From contig JBCBZJ010000014.1 in NCBI GenBank assembly GCA_039815375.1, forward strand, positions 1-64,000: a DNA stretch of 64,000 nt. Direction: 5' to 3'. This document shows positions 31,148 through 51,404 of the stretch, piece by piece (positions within the stretch are counted from its first letter, which is position 1; each line of letters begins with the position of its first letter). The notes below the pieces were generated by a model. That model was not told the origin of the DNA, searched no databases, and saw nothing but the letters and a program-made list of their open reading frames with translations. Source of the stretch: Verrucomicrobiota bacterium (GTDB lineage Bacteria > Verrucomicrobiota > Verrucomicrobiia > Opitutales > Coraliomargaritaceae). The position numbers were made by a program, and so were the translations under genes.

Positions 31148-33001
31148 TTAGCCAATGAGTCCAGCCGCTACAGCCCAAAGAATAATGAGCCCTGTAAGAA
31201 ACCAATAAACGTAACTATGAATATTGCCTACATGTAGTGCCTTGGAGCACATACCCACAAGCCCGACAAGACCCGCGCTACCACGAACCATTAAACCCTT
31301 GATGATGAAGACGTCGAAAAAACCGGTTAGATTGGCGAAGCGTTGTTGAACTTTCGTAACGTAGAAATTGTAAACCTCATCAAACCAAAGCCGATTCTGA
31401 AGAAAACCGTAGACCGGTGACGCCACCTTATTGAGTTTGTCCTCCTTCGCGCCGCGACCATAGAAAAAGAACGAACCAGTCAGACCAATGACCCAGGCAA
31501 GCGTCCCAAAAAGCACAATCCTATGGTGCATGTCATCATAGCCATCAAACTGCTTGAGTTGGTATTTGTCCGCCTTGATGGTCTCGCCCAACACTTCGGG
31601 CCAATAGCCGAGCCAGCCTCCTACAACCGAAAGCACTGCTAAAACAATCAGCGGCACAACCATGACGAGCGGACTCTCCTTGGCATGCGATGCAGCTTCC
31701 GAATTTGGTTTACCAAGAAACACGATCCAGAACAGCCGACCCATGTAACCGGCAGTAAGAAGCGCACCGAAAGTAAGTAGTATCGCAACCGCATTGTTCT
31801 CGAAACCAGCAGCGATCAGAATGGCATCTTTCGAATAGTAGCCGGAGAGTCCGTAGACGCCGCAGAGCGCCAGAATACCAATGAGAAAAGTGAAGGCCGT
31901 GATCGGCATCCTCTTCCAAAGGCCACCCATCTTGAAAATGTCCTGCTCATGGTGACAGCCGTGAATGACGGAACCGGCCCCAAGGAAGAGCAGTGCTTTG
32001 AAGAAGGCGTGAGTGATGAGGTGAAAGAGGGCAATACCAGGATAGCCCAACCCAAAAGCCGCACCGATGTAACCCAGCTGCGAAAGCGTGGAGTAAGCAA
32101 GGATTTGCTTAATATCGCGACGAGCGTAAGCACAGAATCCCGCATAAACCGCACCAAAGACACCGAGCCAGATAATGACAGAGAGCACCTCCGGCGGGAA
32201 AAGGTAAACGATCCGTATCAGGAAGTAACCTCCTGCTGCGACCATGGTTGCAGCGTGGATCAGGGCGGAAACCGGAGTCGGGCCAGCCATTGCATCCGGC
32301 AGCCAAACGTGAAGCGGAAACTGTGCGGACTTTCCGATGAAGCCACACATGAGGAGTGCCGCGATACCTGCATTGATGATCGAGGGGTTTGCACCAACGA
32401 TTTCGCCCATCACTTCAAGATCAGTCGTTCCAAAATACCAGTAAGCATAGGCAATACCGACGACGAAACCGAGGTCACCGATGCGGTTAACAATAAAGGC
32501 TTTTTTCTGCGCAGCGGCTGCGGCAGGCTTTGTCATGTAATGACCGATCAGCATGTAAGAGCTAAATCCAACCAGCTCCCAGAATACGAAAATCATGATC
32601 AAGTTGTCCGCTAGAACGATGCCAAGCATTGAGAACATGAAGATCGACAAGCCCCCGAAGTAGCGAGCGGGTGAAGCATCGTCAGACATGTAGCCAAGAC
32701 TGAATAGGTGAATCAGGAAACCGACAAAGGTCACCATCAGCAGCATGGTTGACGAAACGTCATCCAAAAAGACCCCCATTGAAACGTCAAATGCACCAAA
32801 ATGTAACCAGGACCATGACTTGTGAACTATCTCACCTCCTGCTGCGAACAATGCATTGACCGTAGCAACAAAGATCAGACCTGCCGTTCCGACGGAAACA
32901 TAAGAAGCGATCTTCCCATGACGGCGTAGAAATAAGGCGATAATCGCCGCTGAAAAGAGCGGCGCAAGCAGGACGATTAGAAGTGATTGTGTGGCGCTCA
33001 C
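31148..33001 (-). CDS. nuoL: NADH-quinone oxidoreductase subunit L
   Basis: [51 protein letters not shown]. Confidence 0.97.
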
Positions 33002-33303
33002 CGGCTTAATGCGTTTAGGTTATCGACCATCACCGACTGACGCTTGCGGAAGAGCGCAACGATAATGGCGAGACCGACGGCCACTTCAGCAGCGGCCACG
33101 GTGATGATGAAGAAAACGAAAAGGTTACCATCCATCGTGCCGTTGTAGCGTGAAAAGGCGACCAGTGCCAGGTTGACGGCGTTGAGCATGAGCTCAAGCG
33201 ACATATAGATCACCAAGGTGTTTTTGCGCAGCAGCACACCGAGCAGGCCAATCGCGAAGAGCATTCCTGCAACTAGAATGAAAGCATTCAGTCCGACTGT
33301 CAT
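32998..33303 (-). CDS. nuoK: NADH-quinone oxidoreductase subunit K
   Basis: [20 protein letters not shown]. Confidence 0.97.
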
Positions 33304-33310
33304 GTTGTTG

Positions 33311-33922
33311 TTAGGATTCGTTCGAAGCTTCGTTGTGCTTTTTACTCACCACGATCACGCCAATCATGGCGGCGAGGAGCAAAAACCCCGTTACCTGGAA
33401 CGGAAGCATGTATTTCGTAAATAAGCTGTAGCCAAAGGACTTGGCCGAAGTAGTAAAAGGGATCCCGGCACCGGTCGCGAATTCCGGAGCGCTAGAAGCA
33501 AATTCACCAAGGCTGCCGGAAAGGACCTGTTGCGCAGACATCTCAGGGTTTGCACTTACAGGGACCAAGGTCGGCTCGGGGAGGTTGCCACCTGAAAAGG
33601 CCGTCACGATAAGAATCGTGAGCAGCGAAAAGCCTGTGATGGAACCCGCTAAGGTCATTTTGTCTTTTAGGTAGCTCCTGCCATCCTTGTCTACATCCAG
33701 TAGCATGATGATAAATAGGAAGAGCACCATCACTGCGCCCGCGTATACGAGAATCTGGATGACGGCGAGAAAGTAGGCTTCAAGCAGAACAAAGATCGCA
33801 GCGGTGCCGACGAAAGAGACGATCATGCAGATCGCCCCGTTCACAGCATTCGGGCTCAGCACCATAAGAAGCGCGGAGATCAGCGTTACCGCTGCAAAAA
33901 CGTAGAAAAGGATATCGAGCAT
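33311..33922 (-). CDS. nuoJ: NADH-quinone oxidoreductase subunit J
   Basis: [20 protein letters not shown]. Confidence 0.96.
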
Positions 33923-48223: not shown

Positions 48224-49669
48224 CTAATATCGATAGTGCTCGGACTTGTAAGGGCCCCCGGACTTCACACCAATGTAAGCGGCCTGTTCATCGCTCAGGG
48301 TGGTGAGCTTGCAACCGATCTTTTCGAGATGTAAGCGGGCTACTTCCTCATCGATATGCTTCGGCAGGATATAGACACCCGGAGTATATTTCTCAACCTG
48401 CTTCCAGAGCTCGATCTGGGCGAGTGCCTGGTTAGTGAAGCTGTTCGACATGACGAAGCTAGGATGGCCGGTCGCACAACCGAGATTCACGAGACGCCCC
48501 TTTGCGAGAAGGTAGATGCTATTGCCATCGGGGAAGGTGTATTTATCGACCGCACCTTCGTGATCGGGCTTGATCTCCTCGACGTCAACGCCCGGCATGT
48601 CGTTGAGTTTGTCGACTTCGATTTCGTTGTCGAAGTGGCCAATATTACAAACGATGGCCTGATCTTTCATCTTCGACATGGCGTCGGCTGTAATGATGCC
48701 GTAGTTGCCGGTGGTAGTGACGTAAATATCGCCCCAGCCCAGCGTGTCTTCGACGGTCAATACGCGAAAGCCTTCCATGGCCGCCTGCAGTGCGCAAATC
48801 GGATCGACCTCGGTCACAACAACCTGAGCACCCATACCCTTAAGCGCAAAGGCGCAGCCCTTGCCCACATCACCGTAGCCGCAGACTACACCGACCTTAC
48901 CCGCAACCATAACGTCGGTCGCGCGCTTGATGCCATCGAGCAGAGACTCGCGGCAGCCGTAAAGATTATCGAACTTTGACTTCGTAACTGAGTCGTTCAC
49001 GTTAATGGCAGGGACCAGAAGCTTGCCGGCATTGTGCATTTCGTAGAGACGGTGGACTCCAGTCGTGGTTTCCTCGGAAACGCCCTTCCACTCCTTCACG
49101 ACTTCGTGCCAGTGATTCGGTTTCTCGGCATTGATCTTCTTGAGCAGGTCCTTGATCACCTGCTCCTCAAGGCTGCCAGAATCGGTGTTAACCCAGTCGC
49201 TACCCTCTTCGAGCTCGTAACCCTTGTGAATGAGAAGTGTGGCATCACCGCCGTCATCGACGATGAGCTGTGGACCGGAACCGTCCGGCCAGGTCAGCGC
49301 CTGCTCGGTGCACCACCAGTATTCCTCAAGAGTCTCGCCCTTCCAGGCAAAGACGGGCACGTCGAGATTTTTGGCCACATAGGCAGCTGCATGATCCTGG
49401 GTGGAAAAAATGTTGCAGGAACACCAACGCACGTCGGCGCCAAGCTCCTTAAGCGTCTCGATGAGAACCGCAGTCTGCACCGTCATGTGAAGCGATCCCA
49501 TGATGCGGACGCCCTTGAGCGGCTGCTCATCGCGGTATTTCTCGCGAGTCGCCATCAGGCCTGGCATCTCATGCTGGGCGATCTCGATCTCCTTCTGCCC
49601 GAAGTCGGCAAGGTTGATATCTTTGACCTTAAAGTCAGTCTTGGTTTTGGTGAATGTATCTGTGCTCAT
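48224..49669 (-). CDS. ahcY: Adenosylhomocysteinase
   Basis: [66 protein letters not shown]. Confidence 0.98.
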
Positions 49670-49697
49670 GGTAATTTTAGTTTTGGAGTTTAAAGGT

Positions 49698-49732
49698 GCC
49701 CGCGAAGTGGCGCGAAGGTGTCACTAAGAATG
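49698..49732. repeat. Left arm of imperfect inverted repeat flanking the GxxExxY gene
   Basis: gcccgcgaagtggcgcgaaggtgtcactaagaatg: three CRCNAAG units; contains the GxxExxY stop codon. Confidence 0.75.
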
Positions 49733-50122
49733 CTCGGTGTTTACGATACGTTCCCATTCGAGACGTCCGTAAGACCCGAAATTGACGAGTAAACCAAGAG
49801 GGTATCCGGTTGCGGTTAAGTAATTGAGGACTTGAGAGCGGTGCTCGTTGGTCAGTTGCTTGACTGCTTTGATCTCCAACACCACTTGATCAAAAACGAA
49901 GAAATCAGGCTTGTAGTGCTGTTTGAGCTCGCGACCTCGATATTGAAGCTTCAACGATGCCTGAGCCATGAATTCCATTTGTTCCAACTCAAAATCAATC
50001 TCCAAGCACTCTTGGTAAACCGCCTCCAAGAAACCATTCCCCTTCTCAGTATGGACACGCATGCAAGACCCGATTATGGTGAAGCACTCGTCCTTTAAAA
50101 TAAGGCTCGTATCTTCACTCAT
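49724..50122 (-). CDS. GxxExxY protein (PD-(D/E)xK nuclease fold)
   Basis: GNGFLEAVYQECL (GxxExxY), PDFFVFDQVVLEIK, QVLNYL, GLLVNFG; likely start MSEDTSL at 50122. Confidence 0.93.
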   Translation of the reverse strand: MSEDTSLILKDECFTIIGSCMRVHTEKGNGFLEAVYQECLEIDFELEQMEFMAQASLKLQYRGRELKQHYKPDFFVFDQVVLEIKAVKQLTNEHRSQVLNYLTATGYPLGLLVNFGSYGRLEWERIVNTEHS

Positions 50123-50127
50123 ATCAT

Positions 50128-50161
50128 CATTCTTCGCGTTTCTTAGTGAAACTTGGCGGGC
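50128..50161. repeat. Right arm of imperfect inverted repeat flanking the GxxExxY gene
   Basis: Reverse complement gcccgccaagtttcactaagaaacgcgaagaatg aligns to the left arm at 24/35 positions (manual count), with identical gcccgc and aagaatg ends. Confidence 0.75.
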
Positions 50162-50168
50162 CAAAAAC

Positions 50169-51332
50169 TTAAAGAGCCGCCTTGAGTTCGTCCGCCTTGG
50201 CAGTGGATTCCCAGGGGAGGCCTTCCTTGGCATAGTGGCCGTAGTGCGTGGACTCTCGATAGATGGGGCGGAGCAAATCAAGCTGGCTGACTATGTCAGC
50301 TGGTTTAAAGCTGAAGACCTTCTGGGCAACTTCTGCGATCTTGTCGTCGCTCTCCTTGCCGGTGCCAAAGGTGTCCACATGGATGCTGGTCGGATATGGG
50401 TGACCGATGGCGTAGGCGACTTCGAGCTCACACTCGTCGGCAAGGCCGGCGGCAACGATGTTCTTCGCCACCCATCGGGTGAAGTAAGCAGCAGAACGGT
50501 CCACCTTTGAAGGATCCTTGCCGGAGAAAGCACCACCACCGTGGCGAGCCCAGCCGCCGTAGGTGTCCACGATGATCTTGCGTCCAGTGAGGCCTGCATC
50601 GCCCTGTGGTCCTCCAATGACGAAGTTTCCGGTCGGGTTGATCAGAAATTCGGTGTCATCCTTTAGGAGCTCAGACGGAAGCACTTTTCGGATTACTTCC
50701 TCGATACAAAATTCCTTGATCTCTGCGTGCTTCACATCGGCTGCGTGCTGGGTCGAGATGACCACATTCTTAATCGCAGCCGGTTTGCCATCAACATACT
50801 CAAGCGCGACCTGACTCTTCACATCAGGACGTAACCAAGGCACCTTGACTGTTTTGCGCTGATAGGCCATCTCGCGAAGGAGACGGTGCGCAAACATGAT
50901 CGGTGCAGGCATCAGCTCTGGAGTCTGGTTACAGGCATAGCCGAACATGATGCCCTGATCGCCTGCTCCTTGCTCTTCGGTATCCTTCCCTTCCGCGGCT
51001 GCGGCGTCCACACCCTGCGCGATATCAGCAGATTGAGCCGTCAGTATATTAGAAACGAAGACCTTGTCGGCGTGGAAGACGTCGTCGTCGTTGACGTAAC
51101 CAATATCACGGATCGCGTCACGGACGATATTCTCATAGTTCAACTTCGCACTGGTCGTGATCTCGCCCGCGAGCACCACGCAATTACTCTTAACCAGGGT
51201 TTCACAGGCCACGCGGCTCTTGGGATCTTGCTCAAGGCAAGCGTCAAGAACACTATCCGAAATGTAGTCGGATACTTTGTCGGGATGGCCTTCGCCAACA
51301 GACTCGGAAGAAAAAATGAAGTCTTTGCTCAT
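50169..51332 (-). CDS. metK: S-adenosylmethionine synthetase
   Basis: [54 protein letters not shown]. Confidence 0.98.
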
Positions 51333-51376: not shown

Positions 51377-51404
51377 ACATCAAAATATCAGGATATTTTG
51401 ATAT
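51377..51404. promoter_or_regulatory. Palindromic operator upstream of metK (SahR-like)
   Basis: Perfect 11-bp inverted repeat atcaaaatatc-ag-gatattttgat (51379-51402), overlapping ATATCA-N8-TGATAT (51385-51404). Confidence 0.6.

Follow-up and report, generated by a model that had tools for sequence, protein, structure and literature searches.

A 466-bp cassette with a predicted nuclease gene between metK and ahcY of a Verrucomicrobiota bacterium, a likely selfish homing element

Organization of the metK-ahcY locus

The window analysed here is a 64,000-nucleotide stretch of contig JBCBZJ010000014.1 (assembly GCA_039815375.1) from a Verrucomicrobiota bacterium of the family Coraliomargaritaceae. 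Profile searches and the sequence itself place a GxxExxY gene on its minus strand, co-oriented between the host genes metK (50169..51332, minus strand; TIGR01034, E 9.5e-167) upstream and ahcY (48224..49669, minus strand; TIGR00936, E 2.5e-188) downstream. This gene (49724..50122, minus strand; TIGR04256, E 1.2e-39) encodes a 132-aa protein of the GxxExxY/PDDEXK_3 family, predicted to be a minimal PD-(D/E)xK nuclease. Coordinates, gene context and profile matches agree with the initial annotation, which had reported a co-oriented GxxExxY ORF of this length between the two host genes.

The gene is bracketed by two imperfect inverted arms. The metK stop codon is followed by a short T-rich spacer, recognized from the sequence (50163..50168, minus strand), and, at a distance of about 7 nt, by the upstream arm (50132..50162, minus strand), which contains the heptads CGCCAAG, CACTAAG and CGCGAAG (50158-50152, 50148-50142 and 50138-50132, minus strand) with periods of 10 and 10. 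The downstream arm (49697..49728, plus strand) is inverted and contains CGCGAAG, CGCGAAG and CACTAAG (49701-49707, 49711-49717 and 49722-49728, plus strand) with periods of 10 and 11; the TAG stop codon of the ORF (49724-49726) falls inside its inner heptad. The three CRCNAAG heptads in each arm, the stop codon within the inner unit and the proximity to metK had all been described before and are borne out; what was then called the left arm is the downstream arm in gene orientation, with correct coordinates. From arm to arm the cassette measures 466 bp (49697..50162, minus strand), its ends being placed by a pair of ectopic copies (L338/L352) and by the comparison of filled with empty alleles. 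The A/T-rich ahcY leader of 27 nt (49670..49696, minus strand) resembles, by eye, the whole spacer of the empty alleles among 86 relatives.

By a generic local-alignment score, the similarity of the window's arms is marginal (p = 0.04, z 2.4). Against a profile of the arms of the family the upstream and downstream arms score 17.7 and 21.2 bits, respectively, values reached by 0 of 300 shuffles of each flank (best shuffled scores 5.2 and -2.0) and mildly circular because the window's element was among the 51 used to train the profile. Overall, the similarity exceeds chance.

Upstream of metK, a perfect 11-bp inverted repeat with a 2-nt gap (window 51379-51402) resembles a SahR-type motif and has the look of an operator for a regulator of the SAM cycle.

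The GxxExxY protein

The ORF passes the curated cut-off of TIGR04256 (135.2 bits vs 35) and also matches PF13366. Among 26 sequences, G30, E33, Y36, D73, K85 and Y101 are invariant, and E83 and Q97 are conserved in at least 90%; the putative active-site set consists of E33, D73, E83, K85, Q97 and Y101. No solved structure of the 132-aa protein was found by sequence match. A structure model (pLDDT 91.6) adopts the minimal PD-(D/E)xK fold, and its best Foldseek match is SSO0001 (4ic1; E 5.8e-5, TM 0.58), presumably a Cas4, followed by lambda-type exonucleases and Hjc. A second structure aligner gave Z scores of 7.5-8.0 to several restriction-type PD-(D/E)xK enzymes, none of which stands out. Conservation and structural matches together point to the core fold and the E...D...(D/E)xK pattern of the superfamily, and the protein is predicted to be a DNA-cutting nuclease.

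The window's gene is under purifying selection, with pN of 0.09-0.16 vs pS of 0.72-0.91 against seven relatives. A strict motif filter scored the catalytic residues as intact in 67 of 120 proteins, a figure that is not a pseudogene rate because the filter is too strict and the start calls are imperfect. Longer proteins (190-262 aa) with a duplicated or extended GxxExxY domain are encoded at L088, L089 and L098, in Verrucomicrobiota, Planctomycetota and Lentisphaeria genomes.

Proteins of the GxxExxY/PDDEXK_3 type are very common and have no assigned function: a protein search returned 6110 matches, among them a protein from Coraliomargarita parva with 82% identity, and about 27,000 metagenome stretches are estimated for the patterns of one clade. 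In its available portions, one survey gives PDDEXK_3 with the function 'Unknown' and multiple transfers (PMC3424549); GxxExxY is mentioned near a reverse transcriptase in those of another report (10.1101/2021.01.26.428298), and the term also occurs in a third (PMC12085832). The arms provide a candidate substrate for these enzymes, and the conversion patches described below a candidate role.

Inverted arms as a trait of GxxExxY loci

A set of 170 full-length GxxExxY matches yielded 164 unique loci, 158 of them with full flanks. Inverted flank similarity (p <= 0.01) was detected at 102 of the 158 and at 2 of 200 control ORFs, in line with the earlier expectation that phased inverted arms would surround other GxxExxY genes. 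By group, such flanks were found at 32/47 loci from Opitutales and others, 18/25 from Planctomycetota, 50/75 from metagenomes, 1/5 from a further group and 1/4 from plasmids, and at neither of the two viral relatives that passed the filters (0/2).

The arm consensus consists of a T/A-rich run, A/C-C and three CRCNRAD heptads. Strong arms are present on both sides at 81/158 loci and on at least one side at 120/158. When 241 elements were scanned with the profile, the nearest arm was correctly oriented upstream in 138 and downstream in 142 cases and wrongly oriented in 19 and 21; 64 of the 241 genes had a match on neither side, some of them carrying other arm types. The arm starts 1-33 nt past the upstream stop codon in 40 of 57 loci and, according to crude ORF calls, 85 of 97 loci have a co-oriented gene upstream of the cassette and 81 have one downstream.

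The first heptad period in 51 non-redundant elements is 9 (31 elements), 8 (12-13) or 10 (7). The spacing of 10-11 nt pointed out initially holds in the clade of the window; its equation with one helical turn is not general because most elements have a first period of 9 or 8, and the helical-phase argument is rejected, 9 being the commonest period. Within each of the 51 elements, the six heptads are of one kind (left/right identity 0.86 vs 0.54 permuted), and the two spacer lengths are equal between the arms in 0.92 and 0.86 of the elements vs 0.45 and 0.38 after permutation, whereas heptad position 4 and the second spacer vary almost freely. On the protein tree (FastTree), heptad period and position 7 require 9, 4 and 4 changes, as opposed to 31, 21 and 22 when shuffled. 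Because the six units are all of a single subtype, and because period and position 7 follow the protein tree, it is plausible, as we infer from these patterns, that the heptads are bound by the element's own protein; the tracking of the protein tree by period and subtype is also expected from linkage alone.

Matching spacer lengths bear on a further suggestion made for this locus, namely an RNA intervening sequence whose arms pair in the operon mRNA, with looping-out or removal of the gene. In the minimum-energy fold the two arms are indeed paired, and the prevailing co-orientation of the insertions (85/97) would suit such an arrangement. However, the fold has a z of only -1.25, with 13 of 100 shuffles folding equally well; identity is the same in register (0.86) as out of register (0.87); wobble-compatible mismatches number 27 vs 25 on the two strands and show no bias; the freedom of heptad position 4 and of the second spacer does not fit a conserved stem; no Rfam match came near threshold; and an intergenic insertion need not be removed. 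A loop-out of this kind is unsupported by these sequence comparisons, and we regard it as very improbable.

Other copies in this genome and beyond

The genome encodes three GxxExxY genes, all with inverted three-unit flanks and each with a different unit. The profile scan also revealed gene-less hairpins and single arms, with 13 matches of at least 20 bits vs 0 in one shuffle, and ORF-less copies, for which the initial annotation had proposed a search, are present. A loose regular-expression scan gave 193 matches vs 109 and 97 in shuffled sequence and was replaced by the profile because it was too noisy. Family-wide, 120 elements comprise 10 shared sites and 66 elements that group with no other, and the number of GxxExxY matches per genome in one family ranges from 0 to 13.

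The excess of gene-less copies over genes in this genome (13 profile matches, three genes) would be in keeping with arms that act as non-autonomous repeats and depend for their movement on a different enzyme, from the host or a mobile element, with GxxExxY as passive cargo or an accessory; so would the other short-period arrays found at the same junction in relatives and around a four-helix-bundle gene. This explanation appears distinctly unlikely in view of the purifying selection, the conserved catalytic residues, the correspondence of arm period and subtype with the protein tree, and the three genes of a single genome that each have an arm type of their own.

Apart from metK and ahcY, host gene names used here were assigned by recognition of the translations and are presumptive. 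A gyrB-gyrA cassette is followed by four right-arm copies; gene-less hairpins of the same arm type, nested with a second arm type, are clustered at G000:C12:18177-23107 and 32951-33578. At G000:C63:39805, a pheS-pheT-like junction has a right arm and a piece of the 3' end of a GxxExxY gene, representing a decayed fourth cassette. A multicopy repeat of 200-300 bp, sometimes in tandem, contains a CGCTAAT arm pair and is found next to variable genes resembling integron cassettes (G000:C4:24917, C11:421119, C12:144463 and 146089, C28:750, C38:14699 and 14880, C58:11709, and others). At L474 (G119:C14), three different cassettes occupy consecutive junctions within a single translation operon, pheS-pheT, gatC-gatA and gatA-gatB. 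About 13 tandem GTAG-type palindromic units are found at L578 (G092, rseP-ispG-like junction), where relatives hold a cassette, and at L344 (G078, gatA-gatB) an intact gatB comes after two tandem units, each made up of about 100 nt of the gatB start and a gene-less arm pair whose spacers have diverged.

No GxxExxY match was found among 50,697 annotated phage records. In viral contigs, one alignment detected no relatives and another 22 distant ones (26-40%). Fragments of the window's allele are present in a 2016 run from another study.

Turnover at the metK-ahcY junction in relatives

We collected 88 metK-ahcY loci from the family, 86 of which could be scored, into overlapping classes assigned by eye. 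Type A, the type of the window (CGCNAAG, period 10), occupies 8 of the 86 spacers and encodes proteins that are 72-83% identical; type B (CACGAAT, period 9) occupies six, with proteins 39-48% identical. Intact-length GxxExxY genes number 14 in the 86 spacers. Nine more spacers contain gene-less or deleted remnants, eight of type A (one of them weak) and one of type B, and 34 are no longer than 35 nt, which supplies the empty sites that the initial annotation had anticipated at this junction. Other 6-7-mer arrays occur in about 23 spacers and GTAG-type palindromes in three, two classes assigned presumptively. In four genomes a type B cassette is nested in type A arms, and L274 equals L275 minus the gene, cut between short matching bases. 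Type A and its remnants require 13 changes on a host tree of 76 genomes.

No target-site duplication is visible, but a close and pristine empty allele did not turn up either, the nearest 'empty' ones carrying remnants or other repeats. Remnant arms of other types at such alleles are compatible with repeated rounds of invasion, loss of the gene and renewed invasion. The view of the locus as a mobile unit is upheld by the empty alleles, the derivatives that lack the gene, the second cassette type at this junction and the family-wide arms; a gene universal at the site, a lack of comparable arms elsewhere and insignificant arms, the three outcomes named beforehand as speaking against it, were not found.

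The strong purifying selection on the gene could instead reflect a benefit to the host, for example from a repair or defence nuclease that sweeps between species by ordinary recombination and selection, with the arms serving as operators or translation signals of the gene itself. In many copies the inner heptad of the upstream arm coincides with the ribosome-binding position, and the near-identity patches described below could likewise stem from selection. A distribution of 0 to 13 matches per genome within one family, with 10 shared and many private sites, argues against this explanation, as do the frequent deletions, the frameshifts and the mutual replacement of cassettes; moreover, autoregulation needs neither a downstream arm nor gene-less hairpins. 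We assign it a low probability.

Lateral spread at the same site

In same-site pairs from one genus, the cassette gene is less diverged than both flanks in 13 of 20 and more diverged in 7; ten of the 13 are significant (Fisher p < 1e-3) and represent only five events in two genera. Across genera, the cassette gene is more diverged than both flanks in 52 of 70 pairs and less diverged in 6. Because this higher divergence is the vertical baseline, the low-divergence cassettes are taken as lateral copies. Third-position divergence of cassette vs flanks is 0.01 vs 0.55/0.46, 0.04 vs 0.45/0.40 and 0.00-0.03 vs about 0.2; type B cassettes at metK-ahcY differ by 0.15-0.20 vs 0.35-0.52 for the flanks.

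The shared patches in same-site pairs are sharp-edged. In three events, the sequence just before the upstream stop codon is identical over 27, 30 and 48 nt, each with a chance probability of 0.0006-0.002, and 0 of 115 control pairs have an identical run of at least 30 nt before the stop. In the three type B pairs at metK-ahcY the gene is little diverged, but the run ahead of the stop is no longer than 6-10 nt. Co-conversion of the upstream gene end is seen at two other junctions, in relatives, but not at metK-ahcY; the window's own allele yielded neither a co-converted metK end nor a recent donor. Recent transfer of the window's allele was not detected against seven type A relatives, from which third positions are saturated, and the cross-genus test for co-conversion at metK-ahcY is flat because of this saturation.

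In four genomes of one genus, two different cassettes occupy the same gatA-gatB slot; the grouping of gatA flips from host to cassette about 45 nt before the stop codon, and gatB groups by host again. In one cross-genus pair (cassette 0.98 vs 0.82), the shared patch takes in about 100 nt of gatA and about 70 nt of gatB. A Planctomycetota genus shows cassette identities of 0.90-0.96 vs 0.74-0.93 for the flanks and allele replacement as well, and in a second Verrucomicrobiota genus only one of seven same-site pairs (L446/L444) has a low-divergence cassette. To gauge the background, 347,952 nt were aligned in 20 pairwise comparisons, which contained six near-identical patches on cassettes, in windows chosen knowing that they showed patches, and three elsewhere; the latter are a 1.4-kb contig within pyruvate carboxylase and two patches in one accessory gene. 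Both genera with significant pairs also exchange long cassette-free tracts.

Transfer to unrelated junctions is seen as well. In the pairs L338/L352 and L335/L342 the flanks are unrelated and the genes are 87-93% identical in DNA; homology between L338 and L352 extends from about 10 nt outside the left arm to the right arm. One protein clade is found at both gatA-gatB and pheS-pheT. The main visible spread is nevertheless same-site gene conversion together with the upstream gene end, not transposition with a short target duplication, and here our reading departs from the initial one.

Proposed mechanism

With moderate confidence, we consider the 466-bp cassette a likely selfish homing element, driven by its nuclease and copied by repair together with bases of the neighbouring gene, because copies in relatives are common to species along with a few dozen neighbouring-gene bases. 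According to the available parts of two accounts, flank co-conversion and slot replacement are marks of homing by break repair (PMC2988022, PMC13565253), and it is these marks that favour a nuclease-driven process. Standing directly behind a stop codon and co-oriented in operons, cassettes would be expressed by read-through, with neither host gene harmed. Several copies of the protein may then bind the heptads on DNA, with subtype and period specific to the element. Where donor and recipient alleles meet, a cassette-free, gene-less or rival allele would be cut at or near the junction, while the donor would be spared; arms, rather than host sequence, probably set the place of the cut, and are the likely address because similar proteins are found at junctions without evident shared host sequence. 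Homologous repair would then copy the cassette and 27-48 nt of the upstream gene end between species and replace the earlier allele, the outcome seen in relatives. The gene is often deleted, leaving hairpins or single arms at sites later taken by another cassette type, and arm-bounded copies occasionally arrive at new junctions.

Part of the same evidence can be accommodated by excision and integration, in which both arms would be cut on their outer sides, a circle formed with the right joined to the left arm, and the circle integrated at resident arms or short flank homology, so that the homing-like patches are a by-product. Near the 241 elements there are 21 right-left arm junctions, nine of them 19-21 nt long, and direct repeats flank 21 elements on each side; where G080 has two right-left units surrounding the gene, G079 has a single one, L344 carries a duplication of about 100 bp of a gene start beside gene-less minis, and ectopic copies end at the arms. 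Direct repeats, however, also arise through unequal recombination, and no fixed short target duplication was seen. A cassette-skipping joint appeared in none of four DNA runs, a weak result that is no test of excision because only contigs were searched and contigs drop rare variants. Furthermore, a 132-aa PD-(D/E)xK fold is not known to have strand-transfer chemistry. On balance, excision-integration is unlikely.

More tentatively, and with less than even confidence, GxxExxY cassettes could be chromosomal homing elements of a new class, whose nuclease of about 130 aa is directed by the element's heptad arrays or by adjoining flank sequence and not by a host site that the protein reads. A single small enzyme family could then serve for homing at any junction within operons, work in trans on copies that lack the gene, and compete with rivals by altering heptad type and period. 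A gene-drive-like element that overwrites the final 10-15 codons of core genes, even between species, would then be widespread in bacterial chromosomes, and homing cassettes would account for one class of short repeats between genes. Its nuclease, 130 aa long and directed by short arrays, might also serve as a tool. If the enzyme reads host sequence as a Seg/Mob protein does, the cassette would be a variant of the homing endonucleases.

Relation to known elements

As portrayed in the available portions of PMC2988022 and PMC13565253, the free-standing homing endonucleases of phage T4 (seg/mob) resemble the cassette in having a lone, co-transcribed nuclease gene in an intergenic slot between conserved genes, in the co-conversion of flanking genes, in the exchange of rivals at a slot and in spread between related species. 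The cassette differs from them, as far as these texts go, by its chromosomal location, its PD-(D/E)xK rather than GIY-YIG or HNH enzyme, its terminal heptad arrays, its gene-less derivatives and its relatives at unrelated junctions; co-converted host DNA amounts to tens of bases, as against distances of hundreds to thousands of bases for the cut sites of Seg enzymes. A gene between conserved genes that is absent in relatives is what we observe (14 in 86 spacers), but one fixed slot set by host sequence is not, given the 87-93% identical genes with unrelated flanks, and identity with a classical free-standing homing endonuclease is rejected.

REP/REPIN-RAYT (TnpA-REP) systems, in the accessible text of PMC8266576 and PMC3733652, likewise combine a small nuclease gene, inverted-repeat flanks and scattered gene-less doublets, with repeats that vary together with the enzyme. 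By the same texts, RAYT is an HUH/Y1 enzyme and REP units are tagged palindromes in hundreds of copies, whereas the cassette enzyme matches only TIGR04256, its arms are non-palindromic without GTAG or CGTC tags, and copies number in the tens, with several different cassette types per genome. Lacking an HUH Y1 transposase and tagged palindromes, the cassette is not a REP/RAYT system. Insertion sequences and MITEs share with it terminal inverted arms around one gene and internally deleted, non-autonomous copies; the cassette, at 466 bp, mainly replaces alleles at the same site, and profile and fold searches found no known transposase (DDE, HUH or serine), which excludes an IS. The cassette works like a free-standing homing endonuclease and looks like REP/RAYT, but fails a defining test of each, as well as of IS and IVS.

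TAACTGA heptamer repeats of Beggiatoaceae, cyanobacteria and Bacteroidetes are, like the arms, short intergenic heptamer arrays in housekeeping operons, and a mobile origin is raised as a possibility in the available text (PMC4679880). They have a different motif, are direct tandem repeats without spacers and, to judge from the main text, where the word 'nuclease' is absent, are not linked to a nuclease (PMC4679880). No description of GxxExxY arms was found in open-access papers; subscription papers and supplements may hold one. The window's cassette is apparently one copy of a widespread, undescribed element family; the comparative evidence for homing-like spread is new, and the enzyme is a predicted one.

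The intervening sequence of 23S rRNA with its S23p ORF is, by the accessible parts of PMC4990558, also about 450 nt long, patchy and laterally acquired, with an ORF between inverted ends. Unlike it, the cassette lies in an mRNA operon, shows no sign of a selected RNA stem and carries a predicted nuclease; located between metK and ahcY and not in an rRNA gene, it is not such an IVS. A further likeness is that the genome's one related four-helix-bundle gene (TIGR02436; L241, G000:C11:295391-295711) has its own inverted 7-mer arrays. Together with similar single arrays in about 23 metK-ahcY spacers, this suggests a parallel element family in the same slots.
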